From Chthoniobacter flavus (GTDB lineage Bacteria; Verrucomicrobiota; Verrucomicrobiia; Chthoniobacterales; JACTMZ01): a stretch of 64,000 bases of DNA. Both the position numbers and the translations under genes were made by a program. The stretch is from positions 31,598 through 95,597 of the forward strand of contig CAMDUL010000007.1 of assembly GCA_945878135.1 (NCBI GenBank), given 5' to 3'. Under the pieces are notes generated by a model. The model had not been told where the DNA came from, searched no databases, and worked only from the letters and a program-made list of their open reading frames with translations. Below are positions 7,930-32,868 of the stretch, piece by piece; positions within the stretch are counted from its first letter, which is position 1; every line of letters starts with the position of its first letter.

Positions 7930-8077
7930 AAGTGAAGCGCCCGCACAATGCGTGCAGGCGCTTGGAAGGTCAATTGCGGCTTGGGCACGTCACGCTGCTT
8001 CCCCGCGGCGCCTGCGCCAGCGGACGAAAGCCGCACCACCGGCGAGCGGATGCAACCAACCTTGCCGGAACCGGCGC

Positions 8078-9694
<1,617 letters not shown>

Positions 9695-9750: not shown

Positions 9751-9823
9751 GTCGCGGCGGCCTGTGACCGCCGGACACATTGCTCTTTGATCCAAGGCAC
9801 CGGCGGTCACAGACCGCCGCTAC
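9751..9823. repeat. paired REP-like palindromic element (two 24-nt arms, 25-nt spacer)
   Basis: GTCGCGGCGGCCTGTGACCGCCGG (9751..9774) and CCGGCGGTCACAGACCGCCGCTAC (9800..9823) are inverted copies with 2 mismatches. Each arm is itself a hairpin (CGGCGGTC-nnn-GACCGCCG). Related copies lie at 14392, 60013 and 63284. Confidence 0.75.
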
Positions 9824-10554
9824 AACCGGCCCAACGCCCGCACGGCTCTGGCCACGTCTTCCGGCGCATCGACGCCGATGGAGGGGCGCTTCACCACGAT
9901 CACGCCGATGGCCACGCCGTGCTCGAGCGCGCGCAACTGTTCGAGCTTTTCCGCTTTCTCCAGCGGCGTCGGTCTCCACTTCACGAAATCGAGGAGCACT
10001 TTGCGCCGGTAGCCGTAGATGCCCTGGTGGCGGAGGTATTTGGTCCGGCCGCTTCCGTCGCGGTCGTGCGGAATGACGCTGCGCGAGAAATAGAGCGCGC
10101 GGCCGGCGAGGTCGGTGACGACTTTGACCACGTTCGGATTGCGGAGGTCGGCGGCCGTGGAGACCGGGTTGGCGGCGGTGACCATGCCGAGCCCGGGATC
10201 TTCGCGCAAGGCCCGGACCAGGCGGTCGATGGTGGACGGCGCGATGTCCGGTTCGTCGCCCTGCACATTGAGGACGATCGACGAGGGTTCGAGATGGCGC
10301 GCCACTTCGGCCAGCCGGTCGGTGCCCGTCGGATGCTTGGGTGAAGTCAGCGCGACTTCCGCGCCGAAATCGAAGGCGGCCCCGGCGATGCGCATGTCGT
10401 CGGTCGCCACGATAACTCGGTCGACGGACTTGGCGCGCCGCGCGCGTTCCCAGACGTGCTGTACAAGCGGTTTGCCACGCAGCTTGACCAGCGGTTTGCC
10501 GGGAAAACGCGTCGATGCCCAGCGGGCGGGAATGACGGCGGTTACTTCGGACAT
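9820..10554 (-). CDS. kdsB: 3-deoxy-manno-octulosonate cytidylyltransferase (CMP-Kdo synthetase)
   Basis: Internal ATG 10554 of ORF 9820..10686. AVIPARWASTRFPGKPL N-terminus plus the VQGDEP and GIYGYR motifs. The stop codon TAG lies inside the REP arm. Confidence 0.9.
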   Translation of the reverse strand: MSEVTAVIPARWASTRFPGKPLVKLRGKPLVQHVWERARRAKSVDRVIVATDDMRIAGAAFDFGAEVALTSPKHPTGTDRLAEVARHLEPSSIVLNVQGDEPDIAPSTIDRLVRALREDPGLGMVTAANPVSTAADLRNPNVVKVVTDLAGRALYFSRSVIPHDRDGSGRTKYLRHQGIYGYRRKVLLDFVKWRPTPLEKAEKLEQLRALEHGVAIGVIVVKRPSIGVDAPEDVARAVRALGRL

Positions 10555-11084
10555 CCCGCCTCCCGCAAAATGAAATCCGCGGCGTAACCGATATCCGGCA
10601 CGACCGCATCGGCGCCGCAATCGAGATGGTCTTTGCCGTGCCCGGTCTCGACCAGCACGGTGCGCAGCCCGGCATTCCGGCCGCACTCGATGTCGGAGGT
10701 TTTATCCCCGACGATCCACGAGCGGGAGAGTTCGAGTCCGTGCTCGCGCGCGGCTTCCTCGAGCATGGCGGTCGACGGTTTGCGGCGCGCGCTCGGCTGG
10801 TCCGGCCCGCTCTCATCGTAGTAGGCGCCCGTGATCTCCGCGGGCTTGAGTTGCCAGAGCACCTCCTCGTGCACGCGGCGGTAATCGTCATGCGTGAAGT
10901 AGCCGCGGCCGATGCCGCTCTGGTTGGTCACGATGACCAGGACGAAGCCCGCCGCCGACAACTTGACCAGTGCCTCGGCCGCTCCCTCGATGGCGCGGAC
11001 CTGCGAGGGGTTCGCGCAGTAGTGGACCTCGTGGATGAGGGTGCCGTCACGGTCGAAAAAAACAGCCGGACGGTCAGCGGGCAT
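10542..11084 (-). CDS. gmhB: D-glycero-D-manno-heptose 1,7-bisphosphate phosphatase (HAD, GmhB type)
   Basis: 180 aa. FFDRDGTL, VTNQSGIGRG and VGDKTSD motifs. Confidence 0.85.
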   Translation of the reverse strand: MPADRPAVFFDRDGTLIHEVHYCANPSQVRAIEGAAEALVKLSAAGFVLVIVTNQSGIGRGYFTHDDYRRVHEEVLWQLKPAEITGAYYDESGPDQPSARRKPSTAMLEEAAREHGLELSRSWIVGDKTSDIECGRNAGLRTVLVETGHGKDHLDCGADAVVPDIGYAADFILREAGCPK

Positions 11085-12090
11085 GGTTTTCGAAGCTGGC
11101 GAGGAGTTCGTCCGGGGTCAGCGTGGCCGTGCCGAGCTTGCCGACCACGACACCGCTGGCGTGGTTGGCGATCTCCGAGGCCTCGACCGGCGTGGCCCCC
11201 GCGCAGAGGGCCAGCGTGTAAAGCGCGATGGCCGTGTCGCCCGCGCCGGACACGTCGAAGACTTCGCGCGCACGCGTCGGGGTGTGGTGACGCCGCCCGT
11301 CCTTGGTGAAAAGCATCATGCCGAGTTCGCTCAAAGTGACGAGCAACTGGTCGGCGTCCCATTTGGCGAGGAGGGATTCGCCGACTTGGAGAAGTTGCCG
11401 GTCTTCGAGCGGGTGGGCCGCGGGTTCGCTCCACGGGACGCCGGCCGCGGCGAAGGCCTCGTGGCGGTTGGGCTTGATGACGGTCGCGCCGCGCCAGGCG
11501 AGCGGATTGCCGGGATTCGGATCGACGGCCACCAGGCAACCGGCGGCGCGGGCGCGACCGATGATGGCCGCGGACATTTCCTCGTCGAAAAATCCTTTGC
11601 CGTAGTCCTCGAGGATGACGCCATCCGTTTCCGGCAGGGCGGCTTCCAGCGCGGCGAGCAGAGCCCGGCGTTGGGCCGGCCCCGCGGGCTCGGCCAGTTC
11701 GCGGTCGACCCGCACGACCTGCTGCGTGCGCGCGATGATGCGCGTCTTCACCGTGGTCGGACCCGCGCGGGTCACCACGCCGTCCGTCCCGATGCCGCCG
11801 GCGGCGAGCAAGTCGCGCAGGCGGACGCCGGCCGCATCCTCGCCGGCCAGGCCGAGCACGGACGTCCTGGTCGTGAACTCGTGGAGGTTGCGGGCCACAT
11901 TGGCCGCGCCACCCGGATAGCAGGTCTCGCGGTCGACGGCCACGACCGGCACGGGAGCCTCGGGCGAAATACGCGAGACCTTGCCCCAGATGAACTCGTC
12001 GAGCATGAGGTCGCCCGCGACCAGAACGCGGCGGCCGGACATTGCCCGGATGATTTCCTGCAAGCGCGCGGCGCTGGGCACATGTTCCAC
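11074..12090 (-). CDS. hldE: D-glycero-D-manno-heptose-7-phosphate kinase (HldE/RfaE domain I only)
   Basis: Ribokinase-family motifs VLVAGDLMLDEF and DVSGAGDT. There is no adenylyltransferase domain. Start placed at GTG 12090 because RLQEIIRAMSGRRVLV looks like conserved N-terminal sequence. GTG 12081 and ATG 12042 are alternatives. Confidence 0.85.
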   Translation of the reverse strand: MEHVPSAARLQEIIRAMSGRRVLVAGDLMLDEFIWGKVSRISPEAPVPVVAVDRETCYPGGAANVARNLHEFTTRTSVLGLAGEDAAGVRLRDLLAAGGIGTDGVVTRAGPTTVKTRIIARTQQVVRVDRELAEPAGPAQRRALLAALEAALPETDGVILEDYGKGFFDEEMSAAIIGRARAAGCLVAVDPNPGNPLAWRGATVIKPNRHEAFAAAGVPWSEPAAHPLEDRQLLQVGESLLAKWDADQLLVTLSELGMMLFTKDGRRHHTPTRAREVFDVSGAGDTAIALYTLALCAGATPVEASEIANHASGVVVGKLGTATLTPDELLASFENHAR

Positions 12091-12127
12091 AGACGGCTTT
12101 TTATGCTTTATCTCGGGGGCTTCCCAA

Positions 12128-12952
12128 GTGAAATTTCCATCAATCGTGATTCCACGCCTCCTTTTCGTCCTGCTGCTCGGCCTATCCCCCGCCGTCGCGC
12201 AGAAGCCGGACAAGTCGATCGACTTGGGACAATTCCCGGCCGACACCGTCGAGAATGTCGTCGTCCCGGTGCCCAGCGAAATTTTCGCCGTCCTCGACAA
12301 GCTCGGCAACCCGAACTGGCGAGCCCAGCTCGGACCGGAAAAAAGCTACCCGGCGAGCCCGAACCGCGCGCAGGTCGCCCTCCTGCTCGGCACGGTCATT
12401 GCGGACGGTTTTGTCGCGGTGGAAGCCGAGGACAGCGAGCGCGTGAAGGAAATCGGCCGCAATGTCCTGACCCTCGCCGAGGCGATCAACGTGCGCAAAT
12501 CCGTGGTGGCCCGCAGCAACAGCATTATCCAGAAAGCCGACGCCCGCCAATGGAACGCGGTGCGCCGCGAGTTCGACGGTGCACTGCAGGATGTCAACAA
12601 AGCGATGATCGAACTGAACGACGAACAACTGGCCCAATTGGTCAGCCTCGGCGGCTGGCTGCGCGGCACCGAGGTCCTCACGTCCATCGTGAAGGAGAAA
12701 TACTCCCGCGACCGCGCCGAACTCCTCTACCAGCCGCTGCTCGTCGACTATTTCAGCGGTCAGCTCGACCGCATGAGCCCGCGCCTGCGCGGCCAGCCGC
12801 TGGTCGGCGAAATCCGCCGCTCCCTCGGACGCATCGGTCCCCTCATCAAAAAATCCCCGCCCGACGGCATCACCCCCGAGACGGTGGCCGAAATCAACGA
12901 CCTCTCGGTGCAGATGGTGGATTTGATCCGCGCCAAAGCCGGCCGACCATGA
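12128..12952 (+). CDS. secreted helical protein of unknown function (module copy 1, large subunit)
   Basis: In-frame GTG 12128 (or 12146) of ORF 11981..12952 gives the signal peptide KFPSIVIPRLLFVLLLGLSPAVAQ. Paralogous to 21926..22711 (shared ADG[FY][VI]AVEA[EQ]D, VK..G and W.A.R.E blocks). Confidence 0.7.
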   Translation: MKFPSIVIPRLLFVLLLGLSPAVAQKPDKSIDLGQFPADTVENVVVPVPSEIFAVLDKLGNPNWRAQLGPEKSYPASPNRAQVALLLGTVIADGFVAVEAEDSERVKEIGRNVLTLAEAINVRKSVVARSNSIIQKADARQWNAVRREFDGALQDVNKAMIELNDEQLAQLVSLGGWLRGTEVLTSIVKEKYSRDRAELLYQPLLVDYFSGQLDRMSPRLRGQPLVGEIRRSLGRIGPLIKKSPPDGITPETVAEINDLSVQMVDLIRAKAGRP

Positions 12953-13401
12953 AACTCCTCGCCCCCGCTTTCCGCCGTTCCGCCGCCGCCGTCTTGGCGC
13001 TTCTCCTCGCCGCGCCCGCGGCCCGGGCGTTCGTGGACGACGCGCTTTCTTTCGCCTACGAAGCGGCCAATCCCTATGCCGAGCGCGGCTGGATCATCCG
13101 CGAGGACGCCTGGGGCGGCGACCTCGGCGCGGGCGACAAAAAGCGCGTGGCCGCCCAGCTTTTCCGCGGCAACAGCTACATGTTCTTCCTGGCCACCGAC
13201 GTGGACAACGCCAGCCTGCGCGTCAACATCTACGACGCGCAAGGCAACCTGGCGGAAAGCAAATCGTGGCAGCGGGGGCGCTTCGCCTACGCCGAAATCA
13301 AGCCCCGCTCGACGGGCACCTACAACGTCATCGTCGAAGTCACGTCATCGCCGGAAGAACGCACCGGCTGGGCGCTGGTCTACGGGTTCCAGCGGAAATA
13401 A
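12949..13401 (+). CDS. secreted beta-rich protein of unknown function (module copy 1, small subunit)
   Basis: ATG 12949 overlaps the upstream stop (ATGA). Signal peptide MKLLAPAFRRSAAAVLALLLAAPAARA. Paralogous to 21468..21929 (LF.GN.Y.F, YD.QG, STG.Y.V..E). Confidence 0.7.
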   Translation: MKLLAPAFRRSAAAVLALLLAAPAARAFVDDALSFAYEAANPYAERGWIIREDAWGGDLGAGDKKRVAAQLFRGNSYMFFLATDVDNASLRVNIYDAQGNLAESKSWQRGRFAYAEIKPRSTGTYNVIVEVTSSPEERTGWALVYGFQRK

Positions 13402-13408
13402 CCGCTTG

Positions 13409-14377
13409 ATGGAGAGCACGACGCTCCATTTCGACAACGCCCGCGCCGCCTCCGCGCTCTACCACAACGACGAGCGTTTGCTCCGGGAGTTGGAACAGCG
13501 CCTCGGCGTGCAGGTGGCCGCGCGCGAGGGCTGGATCCGCATCGAAGGCGACAAAGCCAAGACTGCCCGCGCCGCGCAGGTCTTCACCGAACTCGACGAG
13601 GCCCGCCGCGGGGGCGCGGTCATCGGCAAACAGGAATTCCGCTACGCCCTGCAAACCGCGGAGGAAGGCGCAACCCCGGCCCGCATCACCGAACTCGCCG
13701 CCGAGCGCATCGTCTGCTCGCCGCGCAAGCCGCCGGTCATCCCGAAAACGCCCGGACAACGCGACTACGTGCGCGCCATCCGCGAGCACGACATCGTCTT
13801 CGGCGTCGGGCCCGCCGGCACGGGCAAGACCTACCTCGCCATGGCCATGGCCGTGGCCGCGCTGAAGAAGGAGCAGGTCGGCCGCATCGTCCTGACCCGC
13901 CCCGCGGTCGAGGCCGGCGAGGCCCTCGGTTTCCTGCCCGGCGCGCTCGAGGAGAAAATCCTGCCCTATCTGCGCCCGCTCTACGACGCGCTCTATGACA
14001 TGCTCGAGACCGACGAGATCCAGAAATTCATGGACCGCGGTGTCATCGAAATCGCGCCGCTGGCCTACATGCGGGGACGCACCCTCAACCAGTCGTTTGT
14101 CGTCCTCGACGAAGCCCAGAACACGACGGCCGAGCAGATGTTCATGTTCCTGACGCGGCTGGGCAACGAATCGAAATGCGTCATCACCGGCGACCGCACG
14201 CAGATCGACCTGCCGCGGCACAAGCGCTCGGGTCTGCTCGAGGCGCTGGAAGTCCTGCAGGACGTGGAGGGCCTCGCCATCCGCAGCTTGAGCCGCAAGG
14301 ACGTGGTCCGCCACCCGCTCGTGCAAAAAATCATCAATGCCTACGAGCAGCACCGGGAAGCCGCGCCGGAGGCGTGA
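13409..14377 (+). CDS. phoH: PhoH family ATPase
   Basis: Internal ATG 13409 of ORF 13076..14377. Walker A GPAGTGKTYLAMA, plus the LDEAQN and VITGDRTQIDLP motifs. Confidence 0.92.
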   Translation: MESTTLHFDNARAASALYHNDERLLRELEQRLGVQVAAREGWIRIEGDKAKTARAAQVFTELDEARRGGAVIGKQEFRYALQTAEEGATPARITELAAERIVCSPRKPPVIPKTPGQRDYVRAIREHDIVFGVGPAGTGKTYLAMAMAVAALKKEQVGRIVLTRPAVEAGEALGFLPGALEEKILPYLRPLYDALYDMLETDEIQKFMDRGVIEIAPLAYMRGRTLNQSFVVLDEAQNTTAEQMFMFLTRLGNESKCVITGDRTQIDLPRHKRSGLLEALEVLQDVEGLAIRSLSRKDVVRHPLVQKIINAYEQHREAAPEA

Positions 14378-18889: not shown

Positions 18890-19621
18890 ATGTCGAACCG
18901 GCGAGCGATCACGCTGACTTTCGCGGCTTTCGCGGTGTTCCATCCGGCGGCGGCGCAGGATGAAGCGCAGCCTTTGCCTCCGGTCGTTCCCGAGGAGACA
19001 CCGGCCGCGACGGCCTCCCCGAACCCGGACGCTGCCGCGGCGGAAGCCCCGAGCGCCGAGTTGATCATCGACGCCGAGGAAGAGGTGCTCGAGGAGCCGG
19101 CCATGGAGCCCGGCGAGCAGCCCTTGCCGCCCATGGACGGCGACGGGGCTTTGCCCGGCGAGGAAAACATTTTCGGCGCGGACCTTTTCGGCGGCCCGGA
19201 CATGTTCATGCCGCCCATGCCGGATATCCCGGAGGTGCCGCCGATGATCGAGGACCCGAAGGAACTCGAGCGCAAGATGCGGGTCAAACTGCGGCGGATC
19301 AAAGCCCGTCTCGGGCAGGACCCGCAACTGATGGAATTGCAGGCCATGGCGCAGCGCGCCCCGACCCCCGAGGACCATCGCGCCGCCCGCCGCGCCTACT
19401 ACGCGCTCTTCTTCGAAAAAGTGCGCAAGGCCGATCCGGCCCTCGCGGACTTCGCCGACAAAACGGAGCAAGGTTCGCTCGCGGGCCTCTACCAGACACG
19501 CATCGAGCCGACCCTCGCGCTGAATCCCCCGCCGCAACCGCAACCGCAGGAAAGATTCATCCCGCGTCAGCAATTCCCCGACGTCCTGGCCTTGGACGAG
19601 GAAGCCATCCCGCTTCCCTGA
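18890..19621 (+). CDS. secreted acidic Pro/Glu-rich protein of unknown function
   Basis: 243 aa. Signal peptide (ITLTFAAFAVFHPAAAQ), a Pro/Glu/Ala-rich N-half and a helical C-half. GC3-rich codon usage. Confidence 0.6.
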   Translation: MSNRRAITLTFAAFAVFHPAAAQDEAQPLPPVVPEETPAATASPNPDAAAAEAPSAELIIDAEEEVLEEPAMEPGEQPLPPMDGDGALPGEENIFGADLFGGPDMFMPPMPDIPEVPPMIEDPKELERKMRVKLRRIKARLGQDPQLMELQAMAQRAPTPEDHRAARRAYYALFFEKVRKADPALADFADKTEQGSLAGLYQTRIEPTLALNPPPQPQPQERFIPRQQFPDVLALDEEAIPLP

Positions 19622-19627
19622 CTTCAT

Positions 19628-20416
19628 TCACACTCCGACGATCGCGGGCAATTCACCGAGCGATGAGATCGTGTGGTCCGGTTCGACCAAGCCGACCGGC
19701 TCCTCCTCGCCTTCGAGCGCCAGCCAGCAAGTCGCGACTCCGGCCCGTTTGCCCCCGGCGATATCGCGGGCCAGCGAGTTGCCGACCATGAGCGCTTCGG
19801 CCGGCGAAACACCGAGGCGGGCGAGCAAGTGGTGGAAAATCCCCGGTTCGGGCTTGCCGGTGCCGACTTCACCGGAGACCACAGCCGCGTCGAAATACAG
19901 GCCGAGCCCGGAGGTCTCGATTTTTTCGCGCTGCAGGCTGGCCGCGCCGTTGGTGAGCAAACCGAGGCGGACGCCGGCCGAGCGCAAACGTTGCAAAACC
20001 ACTTCCGCGCCGGGCAGCGGATCCTGCAATTCGCGGCGCCGGCGGGCGAAGAGCGCACCGAGATCCGCGGCCAAACGGTCGTCATCGATTCCTTCCGCGG
20101 CCAGGGCACGGCGCCAGATTTCGACGCGGAACTGCGGGGTCCACTCGCGCAGGTGGCGCAAATAGTCCTCCTCCCCGTGGAAGTGACCCCACATGCCCTC
20201 CAGGGCCACGATGCCCAGCGCGTCGCAGCGGTCGACCGGTGCGCGGGCGCGCCACAACTCATCGGACACGCTTTTCGCCGCAACGGCCAGTCGCCCCGCG
20301 TCGGCTCGCGTCCGCGCCGCCCCTTCGGCCGCCGTCTCCAGCAAGGCCTGACGCGAAAGCCGCTCGTCCCAGATGAGCGTATCGTCGAGATCGAAGAGGA
20401 CCGCGCGGAATTTCAT
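19628..20416 (-). CDS. HAD superfamily hydrolase
   Basis: ATG 20416 gives MKFRAVLFDLDDTL (HAD motif I), with LLTNG and VGNSLARDIAGG (motifs II-III). The ORF track start at 20428 is a TTG. Confidence 0.8.
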   Translation of the reverse strand: MKFRAVLFDLDDTLIWDERLSRQALLETAAEGAARTRADAGRLAVAAKSVSDELWRARAPVDRCDALGIVALEGMWGHFHGEEDYLRHLREWTPQFRVEIWRRALAAEGIDDDRLAADLGALFARRRRELQDPLPGAEVVLQRLRSAGVRLGLLTNGAASLQREKIETSGLGLYFDAAVVSGEVGTGKPEPGIFHHLLARLGVSPAEALMVGNSLARDIAGGKRAGVATCWLALEGEEEPVGLVEPDHTISSLGELPAIVGV

Positions 20417-20424
20417 GAAGTCAG

Positions 20425-20991
20425 TCAAACCCGCTCGTAGAGCCGGAGCAACTCCCGTCCGCGCCTCTCGGGGAAAGTCGGGATCTCCCGGGACTCGTCG
20501 AGCAGGCGGAAGTCTTGCCCGAAGAGGGCGTCGAGTTCCTCCCGCGTGCAGCCGAAAGGCGGCCCGCCTCCTTCGTTATCCGGATCGGTGAAAAACACGG
20601 CGAGCAGACGTCCGCCCGGTTTGATCGCCGCCGCCGCGGACCGGACGTAATCGGCGCGACGGGCCGGGTCGATGGCGCAGAAGCACGTATGCTCGAACAG
20701 GCCGTCGAAGACCGCGCCGGCGGCGGGCGCGAAAAAATCCCCGAGCACGTAGGTCTCGTCGGCCACTTTATCATAATCACGGGCACGGCCGATGGCGAGC
20801 GGGGCGATATCGAGCCCCGTGACCGACAGGCCGAGCCGGGCCAGCTCCCGCACGTCATGACCCGTGCCGCAACCGGGCACGAGGACGCGTCCGCGCAAGG
20901 CGCCGTGCGTGAGCATGTCGCGGAGCACGGGATGGGCCCCGCCTTTGTCCCACGGCGTGTCGTCGTCCGCGTAACGGCTGTTCCAGTCCAT
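20425..20991 (-). CDS. thiopurine S-methyltransferase-like SAM-dependent methyltransferase
   Basis: 188 aa. W.....TPW N-terminus, VLVPGCGTGHD SAM motif and GGPPF motif, as in TPMT/halide methyltransferases. Confidence 0.78.
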   Translation of the reverse strand: MDWNSRYADDDTPWDKGGAHPVLRDMLTHGALRGRVLVPGCGTGHDVRELARLGLSVTGLDIAPLAIGRARDYDKVADETYVLGDFFAPAAGAVFDGLFEHTCFCAIDPARRADYVRSAAAAIKPGGRLLAVFFTDPDNEGGGPPFGCTREELDALFGQDFRLLDESREIPTFPERRGRELLRLYERV

Positions 20992-20997
20992 CGCGGA

Positions 20998-21459
20998 TCA
21001 GCGCGAGAGGTCGGTCTGCCGAAGCAGGCGGAAATTCCGCCCCTCCAGCACGGCGCTGGCGCACTCGAGGTCGTCGGTGTGGATGGCGACGAGCGGACGG
21101 CCCCGCGGACGCACGAGCAGCGTGTAGCTGAAGAGGATGTTCACTTCCGCCTCGAGCAAGGCGGCGAGCAGGCGCGGCAGGTCGGAGGCGCCTTCCTCCA
21201 ATTCCGCCACGACCACCTCGCAGACCCCGAAAGCGATGTCGTTGCGGTCGAAAAGTTCCTCCAGCAGGTCGGGATCGCTCACGATGATGCGCGCGATGGA
21301 GGTTTCCGAGGAATCCTGGATGCTGAGCGCGAGCACGACGACGCGGGCCGCGTTGAGCATTTTGACCACCTCCATGAGCGCGCCGACGCGGTTGGTCAGG
21401 AAGACGGAATACTGGCGCACGGCGGGGCCCTGCAGTTTTTCGGTGGTGGCCGTGGTCAT
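20998..21459 (-). CDS. tandem ACT-domain protein
   Basis: Internal ATG 21459 of ORF 20998..21747 (153 aa). There are two beta-alpha-beta-beta-alpha-beta-like halves (YSVFLTNRVGALMEVVKML... and VVVAELEEGASDLPRLLAALLEAEVNI...). Confidence 0.65.
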   Translation of the reverse strand: MTTATTEKLQGPAVRQYSVFLTNRVGALMEVVKMLNAARVVVLALSIQDSSETSIARIIVSDPDLLEELFDRNDIAFGVCEVVVAELEEGASDLPRLLAALLEAEVNILFSYTLLVRPRGRPLVAIHTDDLECASAVLEGRNFRLLRQTDLSR

Positions 21460-21467
21460 GGGACGGG

Positions 21468-21929
21468 TTACTTGAAAAGGTAGAGGAGACAGAAATCCGC
21501 CGCCGGACCGCGGGACGTCTCGATTTCCACAACATAGCGCCCGGTGGAGGCGGCTGTCACGCCGGCAGCGGAGAGCCCGGGACCCTCGTGCGCCAGCACC
21601 CGGACGGCCTCGCCCTGCGGATCGTAGAGCATGATGGACGGACGATCCCCCGGCGCATCCGCGGCGGCGCAGAACCAGTATTGGTTGCCGGCGAAAAGAT
21701 TGACCGCGAGGCGGCGCGGGCGGCCGGGTTCGAGGCGGCCGGACCAATAGCCGTCGCGCAGGCGGAAGCCGTCGTTGGCCAGCGCTCCTCCGAATTCCAG
21801 CAGGCGTGCGCGCAAGGACGGGGCCGATTCGGGCTTGGACGGGGAAGAAGGCGCCTCGTCTTGCGCCCGGCCCGTGCCCGCGAGGAGCAAACCGAGGAGA
21901 AGAAGTCTCAGGCCGCGTTTCATGGTCAT
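21468..21929 (-). CDS. secreted beta-rich protein of unknown function (module copy 2, small subunit)
   Basis: ATG 21929 overlaps the upstream stop (ATGA); ATG 21923 is an alternative. Signal peptide MKRGLRLLLLGLLLAGTGRAQ. Paralog of 12949..13401. Confidence 0.7.
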   Translation of the reverse strand: MTMKRGLRLLLLGLLLAGTGRAQDEAPSSPSKPESAPSLRARLLEFGGALANDGFRLRDGYWSGRLEPGRPRRLAVNLFAGNQYWFCAAADAPGDRPSIMLYDPQGEAVRVLAHEGPGLSAAGVTAASTGRYVVEIETSRGPAADFCLLYLFK

Positions 21930-22711
21930 TTGGATCCGAGTTGCATCAGGAGTTCGGCGCAAGCGGCCTGGATGGCCCCGGCCTGCTCGAGATCCGGCAA
22001 GCCCCCGCCGTCGACAGTCATCAGCTCCCCGACCGAGGCGAAAGCGTTGCCCACCCGCTCCACCACGGGCCCGGTGCGGACTTTCTCCGGAAGGTCGCGC
22101 AATAGACCGTGAAGATAAGCGATCAGCTCTTTCTGTCCGAGCAAGGAAGCGGCGGAAGGTTCGCCGGACAATTCCGCGGCGCGGCCGCCCGCCTGGAGCG
22201 ATCGCATCCAGGCCCCGGCGAGGATGAGCGAGGACAGAGCCTCGTCGCGCTGGTCGGCCATGGCGCGGCGCACCTCGTTAGTCGTGGCTTCCAATTCCTC
22301 GCGCAGGGCGAACCAATCATTCTTGTCGGCAAAGTCGCTGATGCTCTTGCCGCGCGCCAACACGTTCTCGCCGACACCGAGGGCGCGGGCCAGCGCGACA
22401 ATGTCCTTGCCGGTGTTCTTGACCTGCTGGCCGTCCTGCGCTTCGACCGCGATATAGCCGTCCGCCACGAGCGCCCCGAGGTTGAACGCGGTCTGCGGGC
22501 GCGTCGGAAAACTCGTCGGGCCGGGGTCGCGGTAAAAGGCGGCCCAGTCCGGACGCGATACCTTGTCGATCGCGCCGAAAAATTCCGCCGGGGTGGGCAC
22601 CGTGACCGCGGGCAGGCTCTCGGCCTTGGCCCGCTGCGATTCGGTCAGCGCGGCGAGGCCCGCCGCCGGAACGAGGACGGCCAGCAGCAGCAAAGCCGCG
22701 GTGTTGCTCAT
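21926..22711 (-). CDS. secreted helical protein of unknown function (module copy 2, large subunit)
   Basis: Internal ATG 22711 of ORF 21926..22819 gives the signal peptide MSNTAALLLLAVLVPAAGLAA. ATGA overlap with the upstream Cys-rich peptide gene. Paralog of 12128..12952. Confidence 0.7.
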   Translation of the reverse strand: MSNTAALLLLAVLVPAAGLAALTESQRAKAESLPAVTVPTPAEFFGAIDKVSRPDWAAFYRDPGPTSFPTRPQTAFNLGALVADGYIAVEAQDGQQVKNTGKDIVALARALGVGENVLARGKSISDFADKNDWFALREELEATTNEVRRAMADQRDEALSSLILAGAWMRSLQAGGRAAELSGEPSAASLLGQKELIAYLHGLLRDLPEKVRTGPVVERVGNAFASVGELMTVDGGGLPDLEQAGAIQAACAELLMQLGSK

Positions 22712-22887
22712 GGCCTGCAAATAGAATCCCGGTCCTTCCCGGCGGCGAGCCGGATTTTGGGCGCGACCGACGGACACCCGCCGCAACAGCCGCGGGATCC
22801 CTTCCACCGCCGCCAGCACCGCCGGGCCAGATAAGCGGCTGAGCCTCCGACCGCGAGACCGACCAGGATGATTTCCGCCGTGCTCAT
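22708..22887 (-). CDS. FeoB-associated Cys-rich membrane peptide
   Basis: 59 aa: MSTAEIILVGLAVGGSAAYLARRCWRRWKGSRGCCGGCPS.... It has one TM helix, then a basic stretch and a CCGGC cluster, as in the small peptides found after feoB. ATG 22887 overlaps the feoB stop (ATGA). Confidence 0.7.
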   Translation of the reverse strand: MSTAEIILVGLAVGGSAAYLARRCWRRWKGSRGCCGGCPSVAPKIRLAAGKDRDSICRP

Positions 22888-25046
22888 CCGCCCAACCAAC
22901 GCGTGCCGAGCTGATAGGTCAAGACCGCTCCCAGCCACGCAAGCAACGTCATGTAAACAAATCCGAACACGGCCCAGCCCCAGTTGGCTTCCTTGGCCAT
23001 GACAGCCACCGTGGCGCCGCACTGCAGGCAGAGGGCGAAGAAGACCATGACAGCCAGCGCGACCGGAACGGTGAAGACCGGTTGTCCGGCCCGGTCGCCA
23101 TGCGTCCAAAGATCCCGCCCCAGCGCGAAGCGGAGGTCGCCCGACCCGGCGTCGACCTCCCGCCCGATGCCGTAGATGGTGCCGAGCGTGGCGATGATGA
23201 CTTCGCGGGCCGGAAAACTGGCCAGCACGCCGACGGTGATTTTCCAATCGAATCCGGCCGGTGCGAAAACCGGTTGCACGGCGCGACCGGCCCGCGCGAG
23301 GAGGCTTTGTTCGAGGTAAGCCGCCTCGACCGCGTGTTCAACCGCGGACGGATCGTTCAAGGCGGACAAAGCCGCGACCGTCCGCTCGCGCACTTCCGGC
23401 GGCCGCGGGAAATAAACGAGCGCCCAAATGATGACGGTCATGGCGAGGATGACCGTCCCCGCGCGCACCAGGAACTCGCGGGCCCGCTCCCACAGGCGCC
23501 AGAGGATGTCGCGCAAACGCGGGCGGCGGTAGGGAGGCATTTCGAGGAGAAAGGGTTGGGTGCGCGTGCGGAGCACGAACCTGTTCAGGCTCCAGGCCAC
23601 GGGCACAGCCACGACGAGTCCGAGGAGATGCGCGGCGAAGAGCACGGCGCCGGCGACCACGGCCCCGTGGGACGGCTCGATGAACGCGCCGATCATCAAG
23701 GTGTAGACCGGCAAGCGGGCCGAGCAACTCATCAACGGCGAAACAAGAACGGTGGTCAACCGCGCGCGTGGGTCCTCGATCGTGCGCGCGGCGAGGATGC
23801 CCGGAACGGCGCACGCGTAGCTCGAGAGCATGGGGACGAAACTTTTCCCGTTCAGGCCGCACCAGCCGAACATTTTATCCATGAGAAACGCGCCGCGGGC
23901 CATGTAACCGGTGTCTTCGAGCAGGGCGATGAAGAAGAACAAGACGAGAATCTGCGGGAGGAAAACGAGAACCCCGCCGACCCCGACGACCAGTCCGTCG
24001 ACGACAAGGCTCTGCACCGCGGGCCACGCCGCCAACCATGGGGCGACCCTCTCCTGCACCGCCGCCACGGTGACCTCGATGAGTTCCATGACCGGACCGG
24101 CCCACGCGTAGATTGACTGGAAGACGAGGAACATCAGCAGCGCGAAAATGAGCAGGCCCCACACGCGGTGGGTCAGCACGGCGTCGATCCGCTCGGTCCG
24201 CGTCCGGCGGCGCTTTTCCGGGAAACGCACGGCATCGGCCGTGACGTGTCCAAGGTGCTCGTAACGCAGAAGCGCTTCGGCCGGGACCGGTTGCAGGCCC
24301 GCGGCGGAGAGGATGTCGCGCGCTGCGGAGAGCAACGGTTGCGGATCGGCCTCCGGCGGCCAGCCGGCACGCTCGAGCACGGCGCTGCGCTGGTCGAAGA
24401 GAATGCGGCGCAACTCGCCGGGTTCAAGAGGTGCGACACCTTCTTTCTCCAGACCGTCGGCAAGGTAATGCACCGCGCGTTGCACCGCCTCGGGCCACGG
24501 CACCTGCGCCATGAGCAAACGGCCGTCGACCGCGCGGAGCACCGCTTTTTCCAGCGCGCCAGACCCCTCGCCCCTCGTAGCCACGGTCCGCACCACCGGC
24601 ACTCCGAGGTGACGGGCCAGCAGTGCCGCGTCGATGTGGATGCCGGTCTGCTCGGCGGCGTCGGACATGTTGAGGGCGATGACCAGGGGCAGTCCGAGAT
24701 CGGCCACCTGCGAGGCGAGGAAAAGGTTCCGCACGATGTTGGACGCGTCGACCACGCAGATGACCGCGTCGGGCCGGGCCTCGCCGGCGAGGTGTCCGGT
24801 GAGAAAATCCAGCGCCACGCGTTCGTCCGGCGACGAGGCCGCGAGACTGTAGGCCCCGGGGAGATCGACCAGCGTGGCGGCGCGGCCGCCGGGATGCCAC
24901 GCCCCGTATTTTTTCTCCACCGTGACCCCGGGATAGTTGCCGATTTTCTGGCGCGATCCGGTCAGACGATTGAAGAGCGTGGTCTTGCCCGTGTTGGGGT
25001 TGCCGACCAGGGCAATGCGCAAAGGACGGGAATCCGGCCGGCTCAT
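22884..25046 (-). CDS. feoB: ferrous iron transporter FeoB
   Basis: 720 aa. N-terminal G-domain (GNPNTGKTTLFNRLTG, DLPGAYSL) followed by a polytopic membrane domain. Confidence 0.96.
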   Translation of the reverse strand: MSRPDSRPLRIALVGNPNTGKTTLFNRLTGSRQKIGNYPGVTVEKKYGAWHPGGRAATLVDLPGAYSLAASSPDERVALDFLTGHLAGEARPDAVICVVDASNIVRNLFLASQVADLGLPLVIALNMSDAAEQTGIHIDAALLARHLGVPVVRTVATRGEGSGALEKAVLRAVDGRLLMAQVPWPEAVQRAVHYLADGLEKEGVAPLEPGELRRILFDQRSAVLERAGWPPEADPQPLLSAARDILSAAGLQPVPAEALLRYEHLGHVTADAVRFPEKRRRTRTERIDAVLTHRVWGLLIFALLMFLVFQSIYAWAGPVMELIEVTVAAVQERVAPWLAAWPAVQSLVVDGLVVGVGGVLVFLPQILVLFFFIALLEDTGYMARGAFLMDKMFGWCGLNGKSFVPMLSSYACAVPGILAARTIEDPRARLTTVLVSPLMSCSARLPVYTLMIGAFIEPSHGAVVAGAVLFAAHLLGLVVAVPVAWSLNRFVLRTRTQPFLLEMPPYRRPRLRDILWRLWERAREFLVRAGTVILAMTVIIWALVYFPRPPEVRERTVAALSALNDPSAVEHAVEAAYLEQSLLARAGRAVQPVFAPAGFDWKITVGVLASFPAREVIIATLGTIYGIGREVDAGSGDLRFALGRDLWTHGDRAGQPVFTVPVALAVMVFFALCLQCGATVAVMAKEANWGWAVFGFVYMTLLAWLGAVLTYQLGTRWLGG

Positions 25047-25291
25047 CGGGCGGTGAACGGTTCCACGCGCACGGCCGCGGCGTCGGCTTTGCGCAGACTC
25101 AGTCGCATGCCGAGGAACTCCACCTCGACGGGATCCCCCAGCGGCGCGACCCGCACCACGGTGATCTCCGTGCCGGGCAAGAGTCCCAGGGCGAGCAATC
25201 GCGGAACGGCGGGATGTCCATCCTCGCCGGATTGCACGCGACCGCGTTCACCGGGCGGCAGCGCGGCCAGCGAAATCACGGCTTCACTCAT
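25043..25291 (-). CDS. feoA: FeoA family protein
   Basis: Internal ATG 25291 of ORF 25043..25501 (82 aa). SH3-like FeoA pattern: LAALPPGERGRV...RLLALGLLPGTEITVVRVAPLGDPVEVEF. ATGA overlap with feoB. Confidence 0.85.
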   Translation of the reverse strand: MSEAVISLAALPPGERGRVQSGEDGHPAVPRLLALGLLPGTEITVVRVAPLGDPVEVEFLGMRLSLRKADAAAVRVEPFTAR

Positions 25292-25559
25292 CGCGCACCG
25301 CGCGCCGGGCACGAACTTCCGCCTCGCGCAGGGCGCAGACCCGGACACAGCCCAGCATGCAACGGCGCAAGGCCACACAACCGTTCCGGCAGCGGACCAT
25401 GACCGGATCGCGGCCGGAAAGGATTTCCACCTCCGCCCCCTCATGGAAGCCGGCGCGCCGCAGGTATGGAGCCCACTCGCTCGTGTCGTCCACCGAGACA
25501 ACCAGCTTACTCACGCGACGGGGACTTTCCTCAAGAGTCATGACGGGCTGGAATTGCAT
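25284..25559 (-). CDS. second FeoA-like protein
   Basis: 91 aa. A divergent FeoA-like core (VVSVDDTSEWAPYLRRAGFHEGAEVEILSGRDPVMVRCRNGCVAL) with an 8-nt overlap with feoA. ATG 25541 is an alternative start. Confidence 0.55.
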   Translation of the reverse strand: MQFQPVMTLEESPRRVSKLVVSVDDTSEWAPYLRRAGFHEGAEVEILSGRDPVMVRCRNGCVALRRCMLGCVRVCALREAEVRARRAVRDE

Positions 25560-25570
25560 AGGGACCGTTC

Positions 25571-25587
25571 TTGAGACTTAGTCTCAA
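25571..25587. promoter_or_regulatory. perfect 8-1-8 (7-1-7 core) palindrome, candidate metalloregulator operator for the feo operon
   Basis: TTGAGACT-T-AGTCTCAA is AT-rich relative to its surroundings. It lies 12 nt upstream of ATG 25559 (30 nt upstream of ATG 25541). On the coding strand it overlaps a possible -10 (TAAGTC) placed 17 nt after TTGCCT. Confidence 0.4.
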
Positions 25588-25685: not shown

Positions 25686-26288
25686 CTACTGGCTGTCCCC
25701 GCCGCCGCTGCCACCGCCACCACCACCGCCGCCACTGCCGCCGCCGCTATCGCCGCCACCACTCTCGCCGCCACCGCCACCGGTGCCGCCGCCAAAACCA
25801 CCGGGAAGGGGCACGCCGCCGCCTGTGGTTCCAACCCCGCCGCCACCGTCAGAACCACCGGCCGAACCATCGGTGCCTGTGAGCAAACCTATTCCGGGAA
25901 CCGCCGTGAGCAGCGCGGTGTCGATCTGGGAGGCCAAGGCAGGGTTGGCCTGCTTGGCCGCATCGCCGATGCGCTGGGCCAATTCCTCAATGGTGCCCTG
26001 CGGATCGGGCCTTTGGTCGGCCGATTGCTTGCCATCGTAGGAGGCCAGGGAAGGAAAGCGCTGGGTGGCCTTGGCGGCGTTCAGCGCGTCCACGGCAACT
26101 TGCAGCGCTTGGTCCGGGTTTTGCTGAGCGGCCTGAAAAACCGCTTCAGCAATCTGGTCCGTGGTCGCGTTCGACCAATCGACTCCCGAAGGGAAGGCTA
26201 ATGTGGTTGGAACTTGTTGGGCCAGAGATGGATACGAAGAGAGAACAAGACCGATTGAGGTGAGAAGCGCGAGGAGAAGGGTTTTCAT
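25686..26288 (-). CDS. secreted protein with C-terminal poly-Gly/Ser/Asp tail
   Basis: 200 aa. Signal peptide (MKTLLLALLTSIGLVLSSYPSLAQ), a helical Ala/Gln-rich core and a ~60-aa Gly-rich tail. Confidence 0.6.
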   Translation of the reverse strand: MKTLLLALLTSIGLVLSSYPSLAQQVPTTLAFPSGVDWSNATTDQIAEAVFQAAQQNPDQALQVAVDALNAAKATQRFPSLASYDGKQSADQRPDPQGTIEELAQRIGDAAKQANPALASQIDTALLTAVPGIGLLTGTDGSAGGSDGGGGVGTTGGGVPLPGGFGGGTGGGGGESGGGDSGGGSGGGGGGGGSGGGDSQ

Positions 26289-26394: not shown

Positions 26395-27783
26395 TCACCC
26401 GGGGATGCTTTTCAGCATTTCGGCATTGGTCGGGTATTTGCGCACAAAGTGCAGCAACCGCTCGATGGCCTCGATCGGCTTGTGCCCGGCCAGGCCGCGG
26501 CGGATGACATTGATTTTGTGCAGTTGCTCCTCGGGCAAAAGAAGTTCCTCGCGGCGGGTGCCGGAAAGGAAAATATCCACCGCGGGGTAGATCCGCTGCT
26601 CGCTCACTTTGCGGTCGAGGACCAGTTCCATGTTCCCGGTGCCTTTGAACTCTTGGAAGATGAGTTCATCCATGCGGCTGCCGGTTTCGATGAGCGCGGT
26701 GGCCATGATGGTGAGCGATCCGGCTTCCTCGGTGTTGCGGGCCGCGGCGAAAAGTTTGCGCGGGATTTCCAGGGCGCGCGAATCGACACCGCCGCTCATG
26801 GTGCGTCCGCCGCCGCCGGTTGCATTGTTGAAGGCGCGGCCGATGCGGGTGAGCGAATCCATGAGGACGAAAACATCCTTGCCCATCTCGACCAGGCGCT
26901 TGGCCCGTTCGATGGCGAGGATGGCGATGCGCGTGTGGCTCTTGATGTCGCTGTCGTTCGAGCTGGCCATCAACTCGGCCTGCGGCACGGTGCGGCGGAT
27001 TTCGGTGACCTCCTCCGGACGCTCGTCGACCAGCAGGATGATGAGCTTCATCTCGGGATGATTTTTCACCACCGCCTCGGCGATGTGCTGCAGAAGCGTC
27101 GTCTTGCCGGTCCGCGGGGGTGCGACGATGAGTCCGCGCTGGCCCTTGCCGATCGGTGTCATAATGTCCATGACCCGCGTGGTGTAACGCGCGGGATCGG
27201 TCTCGAGGTTGATCCGCGAATTCGGGTTGATCGTGGTCAGTTCCTCAAAATACGGGATGTTGGCGTATTTGGCCGGATCCTCGCCCTCGATCTCGGTGCA
27301 GCGGAAGAGCTGCGGACCGCGGCTGCCTTTGCGGATCTCGCCTTTGATCCAGATGCCGTCGCGCAGGTTGAAAGCGCGGACGACTTCCGGGGTGACGAAA
27401 ATGTCGTTGTTGGACTGGGTGAAGTTGCGCTTGGGGTTGCGCAGGAAGCCGAAACCTTTGCCGCTGACTTCGACGATACCCTCGGCGAAGACCGGTTCGC
27501 CGGACGGCTCTTCCTCGAGCGGCACGCCCGCGTCGGACGGGCCTTCGCCCCCGCCGCCGCCCCGCGGTCCGCGGTCGTCACGGTCTCCCCGTTCGCCCCG
27601 GTCGCCCCGGAAACGACGGTCGCGCCCGCGGCGGAAATTGCGCTGCCGGTTGCGTCGTCCGCCTTCGCGCTGGCCGTCATGATCGGGCGCGGGCAAGGCC
27701 GGACCGGGCCGGTGCTCGGGGAGAGCGGCTTCGCGTTCGTGGACCGGCAAAGCCGGGGTGTCGGGGGATTTGGTATCGTCCAT
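26395..27783 (-). CDS. rho: transcription termination factor Rho
   Basis: Internal ATG 27783 of ORF 26395..28017 (462 aa). Cold-shock-like RNA-binding segment GKGFGFLR, Walker A PPRTGKTTLLQ, and LVDERPEEV. The N-terminal ~97 aa are Arg/Gly/Asp-rich low complexity. Confidence 0.95.
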   Translation of the reverse strand: MDDTKSPDTPALPVHEREAALPEHRPGPALPAPDHDGQREGGRRNRQRNFRRGRDRRFRGDRGERGDRDDRGPRGGGGGEGPSDAGVPLEEEPSGEPVFAEGIVEVSGKGFGFLRNPKRNFTQSNNDIFVTPEVVRAFNLRDGIWIKGEIRKGSRGPQLFRCTEIEGEDPAKYANIPYFEELTTINPNSRINLETDPARYTTRVMDIMTPIGKGQRGLIVAPPRTGKTTLLQHIAEAVVKNHPEMKLIILLVDERPEEVTEIRRTVPQAELMASSNDSDIKSHTRIAILAIERAKRLVEMGKDVFVLMDSLTRIGRAFNNATGGGGRTMSGGVDSRALEIPRKLFAAARNTEEAGSLTIMATALIETGSRMDELIFQEFKGTGNMELVLDRKVSEQRIYPAVDIFLSGTRREELLLPEEQLHKINVIRRGLAGHKPIEAIERLLHFVRKYPTNAEMLKSIPG

Positions 27784-27865
27784 GGTCTTGATCGGGAGAT
27801 TCAGTTGAGGCCGGGAAGACGCTCGCGCACTTCGGCCGGGAGTTGGAAATGGGAATAGATGTGGC

Positions 27866-28006
27866 GTCCGGATCGGGAAGACCCGTCTTCGCAGTGACCG
27901 CGACCGCTTGCGGCAGCTTGGAAAATAGCTTCCCCCGCTCCGCGTCGATCGCGCCTTGGATGCGCTGAACTTTGGACCACTTGTTGTGACCGGCCGTGAA
28001 TTGCAC
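27866..28006 (-). pseudogene. N-terminal remnant of a YebC/PmpR-family gene
   Basis: From GTG 28006: VQFTAGHNKWSKVQRIQGAIDAERGKLFSKLPQAVAVTAKTGLPDPDA. This aligns with the YebC N-terminus (MAGHSKW...DAKRGKIF.K.....AAK.GGGDPDA). Similarity stops after ~47 codons in all three frames. Confidence 0.45.
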
Positions 28007-28281
28007 CCGGATGTCATTCCGGGCCCGGTGATGCAAATAGATTATCTGATTGGTTCTTGGGGATTGCGCGCCGTACTTTGGCAACCTTGTGCCGGAATCG
28101 CCTCCAGAGGGAGCGCGACGAACGGCGCGGACAATCGGAACGAGGTCATAAGACAACGACGGCGCCCTGCTGTCAACCCGCTTTGACAAAAAAGTGTCCC
28201 GAGCCGGGAAAAGGCTCCGGCGTCGGTTTTCCACGGCGACGGCGTCCTTGCCGGCAGATCGCGGCGCGCACGCTTTCCGGC

Positions 28282-31380: not shown

Positions 31381-32868
31381 ATGATCCTTTCCCGCGAAGC
31401 CATGCAGGCCCTCGAGGCGCGCACCATCGCGCGCGGCATCGCGGCCGATGTGCTCATGGAGACTGCCGGCGCCAAGCTGGCGCGCTGCATCACGCAATTC
31501 CACCCGCAACCTGGTCTCCTCGTCTGCTCCACCGGCAAAGGACACAACGCCGGCGACGCCTTCGTCGCGGCGCGTCATTTGTCCTCCGCCGGATGGCGCG
31601 TGCTGGTGCGCAGCGCGTTTGACCTCCCGGACCTCGCCCCGCTCTCGCGCCAGAAATTCGACCTGCTCCGCCCGGCCGTGCTGCGCGGGCCTTTCCAGCC
31701 GTCCGTCCCGCGCGAAGGCCCGCTCGTCCAACTCGACGCGCTGGTCGGCCTCGGCGCCCGCGGTCCTTTGCGTGAACCGCTGGCCTCGCTCGCCTTGGAG
31801 ATGAACACGCTCCGACGCGAGGCCGGGGCACACACCGTGGCGGTGGATTTTCCCTCCGGCCTCGACCCGGACACCGGCACGCCCGGCGATCCGTGCGTGA
31901 TGGCGGACGTCACCGCCGCGATCGGTTTTGCCAAAACAGGATTGGTGGCCGATGCGGCGACCGATCACGTCGGGCGTATCGCTGTTTTGGAAATCCCCGA
32001 TTTCGCGGCCGGAGAACACGGCGGACCCGAAATGCTCACCGCCGCCGCCCTGCGCCGTCACTGGCCGCCGCGCGCGTTCGATACGAACAAAGGCATGTGC
32101 GGTCGGGTGGTCATCCTCGCCGGATCGCGCGGCACGCTCGGCGCGGCGTATTTCGCCACCGCGGGCGCGGTGCGCGGCGGGGCCGGACTCGTTTCGCTCG
32201 GCGCCTTGCCCGACGCGTATGAATTGCTGGCCACCAAGGTCATGCCCGAAGTGATGGTCCGTCCGTTCAAGCAACTCACCGATGTTTTCACCCTGCCGGT
32301 CGACGCGATCGGCATCGGTCCGGGCCTCGGCACCGGCTCGGAAGCGCGCACTTTGCGTATTGTGCGCGAGGCTCCTTGCCCGACGGTGGTCGATGCCGAC
32401 GCCCTGACCATTGTCGCGCACGCCGGATTGCAGCATCTCGACCAAGCCAAGGGCCCGCGCCTGCTCACCCCGCATCCCGGCGAAATGACGCGCCTGCTCG
32501 CCGGGAAAAAAATCAAAGACCGAGCCGCCGTGGCGCGCCAGTTCACCGACCGGCATCCGGTGACCCTGCTGCTCAAAGGCGCACGCACGGTCATCGCGGA
32601 AAAGGGCCGGCCGTTGCGCTACAACCCCACGGGACATCCCGGCATGGCCACCGGCGGCATGGGAGATGTGCTCACCGGCGTGTGCAGCGCGCTGCTTGGT
32701 CAGGGAGCGGACACCTATCTTGCCGCGTCGATCGGCGCGTGGGTCTGTGGACGTGCCGCGGATATCGCCATCGTGCGCGGCGGCCAGTCGGTGGAATCGA
32801 TGGCTCCCGCCGACGTTCTGGAGAATCTCGGTCGCGCTTTCGACTCCCTGCGCGCCGGGGATTTTTAA
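31381..32868 (+). CDS. nnr: bifunctional NAD(P)H-hydrate epimerase / ADP-dependent dehydratase
   Basis: ATG 31381 within ORF 31231..32868. YjeF N-terminal domain (GKGHNAGDAFVAAR) plus a C-terminal carbohydrate-kinase-like domain (TPHPGEM, GMATGGMGDVLTG). Confidence 0.88.
   Translation: MILSREAMQALEARTIARGIAADVLMETAGAKLARCITQFHPQPGLLVCSTGKGHNAGDAFVAARHLSSAGWRVLVRSAFDLPDLAPLSRQKFDLLRPAVLRGPFQPSVPREGPLVQLDALVGLGARGPLREPLASLALEMNTLRREAGAHTVAVDFPSGLDPDTGTPGDPCVMADVTAAIGFAKTGLVADAATDHVGRIAVLEIPDFAAGEHGGPEMLTAAALRRHWPPRAFDTNKGMCGRVVILAGSRGTLGAAYFATAGAVRGGAGLVSLGALPDAYELLATKVMPEVMVRPFKQLTDVFTLPVDAIGIGPGLGTGSEARTLRIVREAPCPTVVDADALTIVAHAGLQHLDQAKGPRLLTPHPGEMTRLLAGKKIKDRAAVARQFTDRHPVTLLLKGARTVIAEKGRPLRYNPTGHPGMATGGMGDVLTGVCSALLGQGADTYLAASIGAWVCGRAADIAIVRGGQSVESMAPADVLENLGRAFDSLRAGDF

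Follow-up and report, generated by a model that had tools for sequence, protein, structure and literature searches.

Gene organization of the feo locus

Among bacterial importers of Fe(II), Feo is the most widespread, and to our knowledge no periplasmic partner has been established for it. We describe here a chain of closely packed genes on the minus strand of a 64,000-nucleotide stretch of DNA (positions 31,598 to 95,597 of contig CAMDUL010000007.1, assigned to Chthoniobacter flavus, phylum Verrucomicrobiota; hereafter, the window), in which a feo operon runs by overlapping stop and start codons into two genes for putatively exported proteins, referred to here as the large and the small module protein and together as the pair. 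The window has a G+C content of ~66%, and its closest relatives are Chthoniobacterales metagenome-assembled genomes (MAGs), in one of which (L001) the large protein is 97% identical. An earlier reading of this DNA, made from the sequence alone, had proposed the pair as a candidate periplasmic accessory of Feo.

The chain opens with a feoA-like gene at 25284-25559 (91 amino acids, aa), which matches the Pfam family PF04023 FeoA at an E value of 1.3e-9, and continues with feoA at 25043-25291 (82 aa; PF04023, E = 1.3e-20) and feoB at 22884-25046 (720 aa; FeoB_N at E = 7e-57, together with Gate and FeoB_C, above the Pfam cut-offs). These are followed by the gene for a FeoB-associated Cys-rich membrane peptide at 22708-22887 (59 aa; a subthreshold match to PF12669, FeoB_associated), the large module gene at 21926-22711 (261 aa; a copy-2-type protein, as defined below) and the small module gene at 21468-21929 (153 aa). 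The two feoA genes overlap by 8 nucleotides (nt; ATGAGTGA), and ATGA stop/start overlaps lie at 25046, 22887, 22711 and 21929; the order, the coordinates and all of the overlaps of these six genes agree with those of the sequence-only reading.

That reading had also placed the pair at the 3' end of the feo operon. The adjacency by overlap stands; however, the chain runs on past the small gene. A cytoplasmic ACT-pair protein of 153 aa is encoded at 20998-21459, starting 8 nt past the small gene; it matches PF19571 ACT_8 (E = 7.6e-15; 55.4 bits against a cut-off of 23.5 bits) over residues 14-152, which covers both ACT domains, and PDB entry 2f06 (E = 2.4e-8). The gene for a TPMT-like methyltransferase (20425-20991; PF05724, E = 9e-31) follows after 6 nt and is joined, by a TTGA overlap or by 8 nt, to a HAD hydrolase gene (19628-20428; PF00702, E = 1.7e-28), the last of the tight chain; all three genes are likewise on the minus strand. 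Nine genes are thus packed with every gap ≤8 nt, and the products of the final three are clearly cytoplasmic, with no relation to iron transport. What makes up a Feo system, namely, an SH3-like FeoA and a FeoB with G domain, Gate and FeoB_C, encoded together, is found in the neighboring genes and not in the pair.

Two other gene models were discarded. Plus-strand open reading frames (ORFs) across the region are high-GC shadow frames, the homology evidence being on the minus strand, and a longer, 297-aa version of the large ORF, from a GTG at 22819, was dropped because its extension is an alternative frame of the conserved Cys peptide.

The FeoB-associated peptide

The feoA-feoA-feoB-PF12669 core follows a known architecture. 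In Firmicutes and Bacteroidetes, a pair of feoA genes and feoB are followed directly by a gene for a ~59-aa peptide with one transmembrane segment and a Cys cluster, and this peptide family has been described, with members elsewhere that are fused to the FeoB C terminus (PMC8749426). The operon in the window has the same architecture; it differs in that its host belongs to the Verrucomicrobiota, in that its peptide falls short of the Pfam cut-off (E = 8.3e-5; 23.2 bits, with 27 bits required) and in that the operon continues gap free into two exported and three cytoplasmic genes. Furthermore, in one Verrucomicrobiota subclade the fusion partner of the peptide is the large exported protein, not FeoB. 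Neither the extension into two exported proteins nor the peptide::large fusion is described in the Feo literature that was searched.

The size of the peptide, its single transmembrane segment, its Cys-rich motif and its position directly 3' of feoB all fit the FeoB_associated description. The transmembrane segment is followed by RRCWRRWKGSRGCCGGCP, with CCGGCP and two further Cys residues, and by the positive-inside rule the peptide would adopt an N-out/C-in orientation, with its Cys cluster in the cytoplasm. The peptide is encoded, with overlapping junctions throughout, in all 14 of the feo-linked loci considered below.

A putative Fur-type operator ahead of the operon

A 17-bp palindrome of the form TTGAGACT-W-AGTCTCAA (TTGAGACTAAGTCTCAA in the window, at 25571-25587) precedes the feoA-like ATG by 12-28 nt. 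It has no second exact copy in the window, where the other match needs 3 mismatches, and it is kept in every feo-linked locus that reaches the region upstream of the feoA-like gene (among L001-L012, L062, L083 and L084), within flanks that have diverged. With this one motif tested, 1.1 Mb of related loci contained no other occurrence, including the regions upstream of all free-standing large-small-ACT units, so that pairs unlinked from feo show no sign of the operator.

An exact-match scan of metagenome contigs returned at least 80 loci with the palindrome (L088-L167). Among the matches listed, in diverse contigs with G+C contents of 36-72%, it stands beside FUR-family genes in at least 17 loci, beside feo in at least 14 and beside bacterioferritin (bfr), FTR1 and PepSY_TM genes in at least 2 each, and many of these feo systems are only 28-52% identical to the FeoB of the window. 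The remaining loci listed are mostly of low G+C content and are probably chance matches, since the metagenome collection is large. The recurrence of the palindrome beside FUR, feo, bfr and FTR1 genes leads us to read it as a Fur-family box, under which the feo promoter would be repressed by iron. It is like known Fur operators in its location near a feo promoter and in the occurrence of the same sequence before FUR-family, bacterioferritin, FTR1 and PepSY_TM genes, but its sequence is unlike the classical Fur box, GATAATGATAATCATTATC. The full motif was not found in the literature searched, and it appears to be a widespread, nonclassical member of the Fur-family boxes. Since the stop codon of the peptide gene overlaps the start codon of the large gene, the pair and the ACT_8, methyltransferase and HAD genes behind it probably ride on the iron-repressed feo transcript.

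Properties of the large and small module proteins

Both ORFs of the pair are genuine genes: the large and small proteins have 333 and 172 homologues, respectively, and confident AlphaFold models. Searches of Pfam and NCBIfam placed neither protein in a family, with no Pfam family matched by the small protein even at E ≤ 0.1, and a Pfam domain was found in none (0/110) of the diverse family representatives that were also scanned; the sole subthreshold sequence match to any Pfam family was to FxLYD, for the small protein of a second module copy in the window (copy 1, described below). A profile search of 1.84 billion cluster representatives recovered 999 members at E ≤ 1e-3, and the large-protein clusters that were looked up carry the source annotation "hypothetical protein." Each protein starts with one or two basic residues, followed by a hydrophobic run and then by an AxA-type motif, an arrangement that, judged by eye, would be a Sec signal peptide.

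AlphaFold2 models were built on the family alignments. The large protein is modeled as all-helical, with at least 10 helices (predicted local distance difference test score [pLDDT], 87.6), and it had no significant fold match in the PDB by Foldseek and no PDB sequence match by profile search. The model of the small protein (pLDDT, 86.8) comprises the putative signal peptide, a linker, one helix and an 8-stranded beta-sandwich that superposes on PPC, collagen-binding and GOLD domains and on the Tk-SP jelly roll (Foldseek E values of 3e-5 to 1e-3, probability of 1.00, template modeling [TM] score of ~0.5). Sandwiches of the PPC, collagen-binding and GOLD types are generic binding modules; the small protein differs from them in being free-standing, in its extra N-terminal helix and in its obligate pairing with a helical partner. 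It is not a member of PPC-type families (e.g., PF04151) by sequence profile, and a PDB profile search returned nothing meaningful.

As a Feo accessory, the pair would resemble EfeO (of EfeUOB) and P19/FetP (of FTR1-type permeases), which are exported, operon-encoded iron handlers; however, it has no sequence or fold kinship with these proteins, and the large protein contains no conserved His/Met/Cys site and no HxxE-type site. By fold, by sequence and by metal-ligand motif, therefore, the pair falls outside the periplasmic iron-binding families (EfeO/imelysin M75 and P19). EfeO was the top Foldseek match of the large protein, at an E value of 0.74 and a TM score of 0.20, and the likeness was rejected as insignificant. 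An LTxxQ/CpxP/Spy identity was also rejected: copy-2-type large proteins have a single LTxxQ-like motif near the mature N terminus, there is no Pfam match, and the motif is absent from copy 1.

Conserved positions of the large protein were taken as those with ≥90% conservation in each of three groups: feo-linked copy-2-type, unlinked copy-2-type and copy-1-type proteins. These are P39, P41, E43, F45, K50, P54, W56, G79, G85, A88, V89, E90, A91, V97, K98, G101, V113, R120, A128, W133, L162, W168, R170, L191 and Q193, with no His, Cys or Met among them. A further 24 positions are fixed only in the feo-linked clade; they are mostly conservative exchanges (N to D, K to R, S to G and Q to E) with a slight acidic gain, and they do not look like the gain of a metal site.

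The two proteins are also found naturally fused, in the order large::small, in P0249, P0251, P0256, P0271 and P0300 (414-471 aa, with a Pro-rich linker) and at L085 (3074-4318), where the fusion is followed by ACT_8 and DUF4412 genes and feo is absent. Taken together, these fusions and the invariable adjacency of the two genes suggest that the pair acts as one unit, and the large and small proteins are most likely the subunits of a 1:1 complex, which is the simplest form that such a unit could take.

Distribution of the pair and origin of its link to feo

The sequence-only reading proposed that homologues of the pair be surveyed for proximity to feoB. A scan of one genome per species yielded 157 relatives, of which the best 80 loci were analyzed; all but two of these, from MAGs whose labels are uninformative or odd, belong to Verrucomicrobiota, mainly Chthoniobacterales. 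The small gene directly follows the large gene in 79/80 loci, and the remaining one, L039, is on a contig that stops right behind the large gene. A neighbor-joining tree of the large protein separates a copy-1-type clade (n = 16 loci) from a copy-2-type clade (n = 64), and as judged from these sequences the two copies in the window are ancient paralogues of one Verrucomicrobiota module.

A feoB gene lies upstream in 14/64 copy-2-type loci and in 0/16 copy-1-type loci. The 14 feo-linked loci are those of the closest relatives (large proteins 58-97% identical), and together with the window they form one monophyletic clade, which points to one juxtaposition event and not to repeated enrichment. 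The link that the survey was meant to find is thus confined to a single clade and does not recur across independent lineages; the pair is clearly neither a general nor an ancestral component of Feo, as far as gene neighborhoods can tell. The pair of the remaining 50 copy-2-type loci stands at the head of a separate unit, with nothing iron related within 8 kb. The upstream neighbors of unlinked pairs are a divergent hrpB gene (HrpB helicase) in 17/48 loci, purL/purQ in 8-9 and, elsewhere, enolase or singletons.

Downstream of the pair, an ACT_8 gene is present in 53/64 copy-2-type loci, and it is this gene, not feo, that is the conserved partner of the pair. With ACT_8 conserved and feo present in one clade only, the ancestral unit would be large-small-ACT_8, ahead of which the feo cassette was placed once. 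The ACT_8 protein is 87-100% identical across the linked clade, far above the conservation of the pair, and many free-standing units are followed by a DUF4412 gene. A cytoplasmic, ligand-binding protein is here encoded together with two exported ones.

Flanking synteny that includes Fe-superoxide dismutase (Fe-SOD), serine hydroxymethyltransferase (SHMT) and RmuC genes is also kept in part of the linked clade, so that conserved gene order within this clade carries little information. The gene that precedes feo in some relatives codes for a 577-aa fusion of a low-molecular-weight phosphatase domain (LMWPc) with SHMT (L083, 2496-4229; L086 and L087, 1405-3138; L208, 1030-2763), with a divergent Fe/Mn superoxide dismutase gene beside it.

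Junctions and fusions between feo and the module

The sequence-only reading treated the successive ATGA overlaps as hard-wiring of the pair to feo, which applies to one of the two overlaps within the module region. A 4-nt overlap between the large and small genes occurs in 45/49 non-feo and 14/14 feo-linked loci (59/63 copy-2-type loci); because it is seen with and without feo, the ATGA at 21929 is a property of the module itself, and 22711 is the only junction through which the module is tied to feo. Between feoB and the peptide gene, the overlap is 4 nt or 1 nt in every one of the 14 linked species. The peptide/large junction is a 4-nt overlap in 8 of these species, a 1-nt overlap in 1 and an in-frame fusion in 5 (L005, at 7818-8792; L007; L008; L009; and L011).

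Peptide::large fusions are also present at L086 (6001-6966) and L208 (6001-6900). As called, the fusion proteins are 321-323 aa in P0068, P0077, P0082, P0085, P0092, P0109 and P0110 and 299 aa in P0081 and P0091; the P0109 and P0110 clusters are abundant, with ~140 members each. The possibility that the 321-aa and 299-aa forms represent two independent fusions was rejected: both occur in the same synteny, which indicates a single fusion event. The fusion keeps the signal-like segment of the large protein as a second hydrophobic stretch, which would carry the helical domain to the periplasm and give the protein a coherent topology.

It can be imagined from these junctions that, in this clade, the captured heterodimer has been recruited as a periplasm-facing partner of FeoB that is tethered or positioned by the Cys peptide and delivers, buffers or senses Fe(II). 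The feoB/peptide/large junctions are overlapping or fused in the 14 linked species and in the window, with peptide::large ORFs in five of those species and in the metagenome clusters P0109, P0110, P0081 and P0091. When the FeoB::peptide fusions known from elsewhere (PMC8749426) are set beside the peptide::large and large::small fusions, a chain of fusion links leads from FeoB through the peptide and the large protein to the small protein. A Fur-type box on the operon and the acidic residues gained in the linked clade (N55D, Q115E and S184E) are in keeping with such a role. This recruitment nevertheless has to be set against a juxtaposition that arose once, against the lack of feo beside the pair in 50/64 copy-2-type and 16/16 copy-1-type loci, against free-standing units that carry no Fur-type box and against a large protein that lacks conserved His, Cys or Met residues and, given the poor EfeO match, does not resemble any known periplasmic iron protein. 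In addition, the AxA site is retained in the fusion, so that signal peptidase could still separate the peptide from the large protein. Equally tight junctions join the pair to the clearly unrelated cytoplasmic ACT_8, methyltransferase and HAD genes, which makes hard-wiring weak evidence of shared function, and 4-nt overlaps join unrelated genes in relatives too, such as Aldedh and Acylphosphatase genes in L081. (The commonness of these overlaps was judged from the gene calls of related contigs; a crude caller based on third-codon-position G+C [GC3] missed the feo chain when run on the window and was discarded.) The proposal that the pair is a periplasmic accessory of Feo therefore finds partial support, in the overlaps and fusions of the linked clade but not in its single origin, its unlinked orthologues or a metal signature, and we regard recruitment to Feo in this clade as unlikely, if conceivable.

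The same junctions might instead be without regulatory consequence. The large-small-ACT unit would then keep a constitutive promoter of its own inside the upstream coding sequence, and the overlaps would simply reflect how compact this gene-dense, high-GC genome is. In most lineages the unit stands by itself, the high identity of the ACT protein suggests a housekeeping role that is ill suited to iron repression, and 4-nt overlaps are common between unrelated genes. However, none of the 14 species has noncoding space for a promoter, and in the fusion subclade ribosomes that translate the peptide have to continue into the large protein. A scan of 18.5-26.5 kb for promoters and terminators was uninformative; its consensus promoter search found nothing between feoB and the large gene, which is a weak test. 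We consider adjacency of this kind improbable.

Copy 1 of the module and neighboring genes

The sequence-only reading had recognized a second copy of the module in the window, and such a copy is indeed present on the plus strand at ~12128-13401. Its large protein, with a probable GTG start, is encoded at 12128-12952 (34% identity to copy 2; E = 2.6e-35) and its small protein at 12949-13401 (30% identity; E = 7.5e-10); the two genes are joined by an ATGA overlap, and phoH is next downstream. In the neighborhood of copy 1 (9820-14377), divergent genes for a CTP_transf_3 cytidylyltransferase, a HAD phosphatase and a pfkB kinase, which we read as kdsB-, gmhB- and hldE-like, respectively, lie on one side, with phoH on the other. 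Among the copy-1-type loci, phoH is downstream in 15/16, and hldE/gmhB homologues are divergently upstream in 7-8/16; this recurrent linkage hints at an envelope role for copy 1.

Carried over to the whole family, this neighborhood would make the module an envelope-glycan- or lipopolysaccharide-related binding complex, with copy 1 as the real clue to its function and the feo link as incidental. The position of copy 1, divergent to the hldE-, gmhB- and kdsB-like genes and upstream of phoH, could be accounted for in this way, as could the conserved Trp, Arg, Asp and Asn residues in combination with a PPC/carbohydrate-binding-like sandwich and the DUF4412 genes that come after many free-standing units. 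Divergent adjacency is weak evidence, however; no carbohydrate-binding family was matched by sequence, and the residue argument is generic. We think this explanation quite improbable.

Three further ORFs flank the chain. Directly upstream of the feo promoter, a minus-strand ORF (25686-26288) encodes a 200-aa protein that carries a signal peptide and ends, at its C terminus, in a long tail of Gly-rich GGGxSGGG repeats, and convergent to the end of the chain a plus-strand ORF (18890-19621) encodes a 243-aa Pro/Glu-rich protein with a signal peptide; neither has a Pfam match. The ORF at 26395-28017 (minus strand) encodes a Rho termination factor whose RNA-binding domain is preceded by a long N-terminal extension rich in Arg, Gly and Asp, and the true start of this ORF is uncertain.

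A model for the feo-linked module and its implications

The explanation that we favor, and hold to be reasonably probable, is operon accretion, in which a stand-alone periplasmic heterodimer was captured into a Fur-controlled feo operon as a passenger or, at most, as a recent recruit; the pair would then be no dedicated part of Feo. The helical large protein and the small protein, with its PPC/GOLD-like sandwich, would be the subunits of an old, lineage-restricted periplasmic module of the Verrucomicrobiota, both exported by Sec and made in equal amounts by means of the overlapping stop and start codons, and their 1:1 complex would bind a partner or a ligand in the envelope. The ancestral copy-2-type pair would head its own operon together with the cytoplasmic ACT-pair gene; in one clade, which includes the genome of the window, a feoA-feoA-feoB-Cys-peptide cassette controlled by a Fur box would have landed directly upstream.

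Several points weigh against accretion without a shared function. No spacer has opened at the feoB/peptide or the peptide/large junction in any of the 14 species, although the large protein has diverged down to 58% identity, and a single peptide::large ORF with a coherent topology would be easier to tolerate if both parts acted at the same place. Fe(II) sites made up of carboxylates only, that is, of acidic residues, exist, and the module may serve Feo in trans in all lineages. It is therefore conceivable, if rather doubtful, that Feo in this Chthoniobacterales clade has a periplasm-facing arm, in which the Cys peptide, with its cytoplasmic Cys cluster, is coupled by overlap or by fusion to a helical protein that pairs with a beta-sandwich subunit, the two capturing, buffering or sensing Fe(II) for FeoB; if so, no Feo system would have had a periplasmic partner described before this one. 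The lead is concrete, but it rests on gene order in uncultured organisms and on a single evolutionary origin.

In conclusion, the locus offers a concrete and testable case, in which a Fur-type operator precedes a Cys peptide gene that is firmly joined to those of an exported module of two subunits, with outright fusion in some species. A true functional link would reveal the way in which Feo is connected to the periplasm; failing that, the locus would be a clean example of overlaps and fusions that arise from operon accretion without shared function, and a caution for annotation by guilt by association. In either case, the pair defines an unannotated family of the Verrucomicrobiota, with ~1,000 clusters at 50% identity and a helical subunit that has no detectable structural relative.

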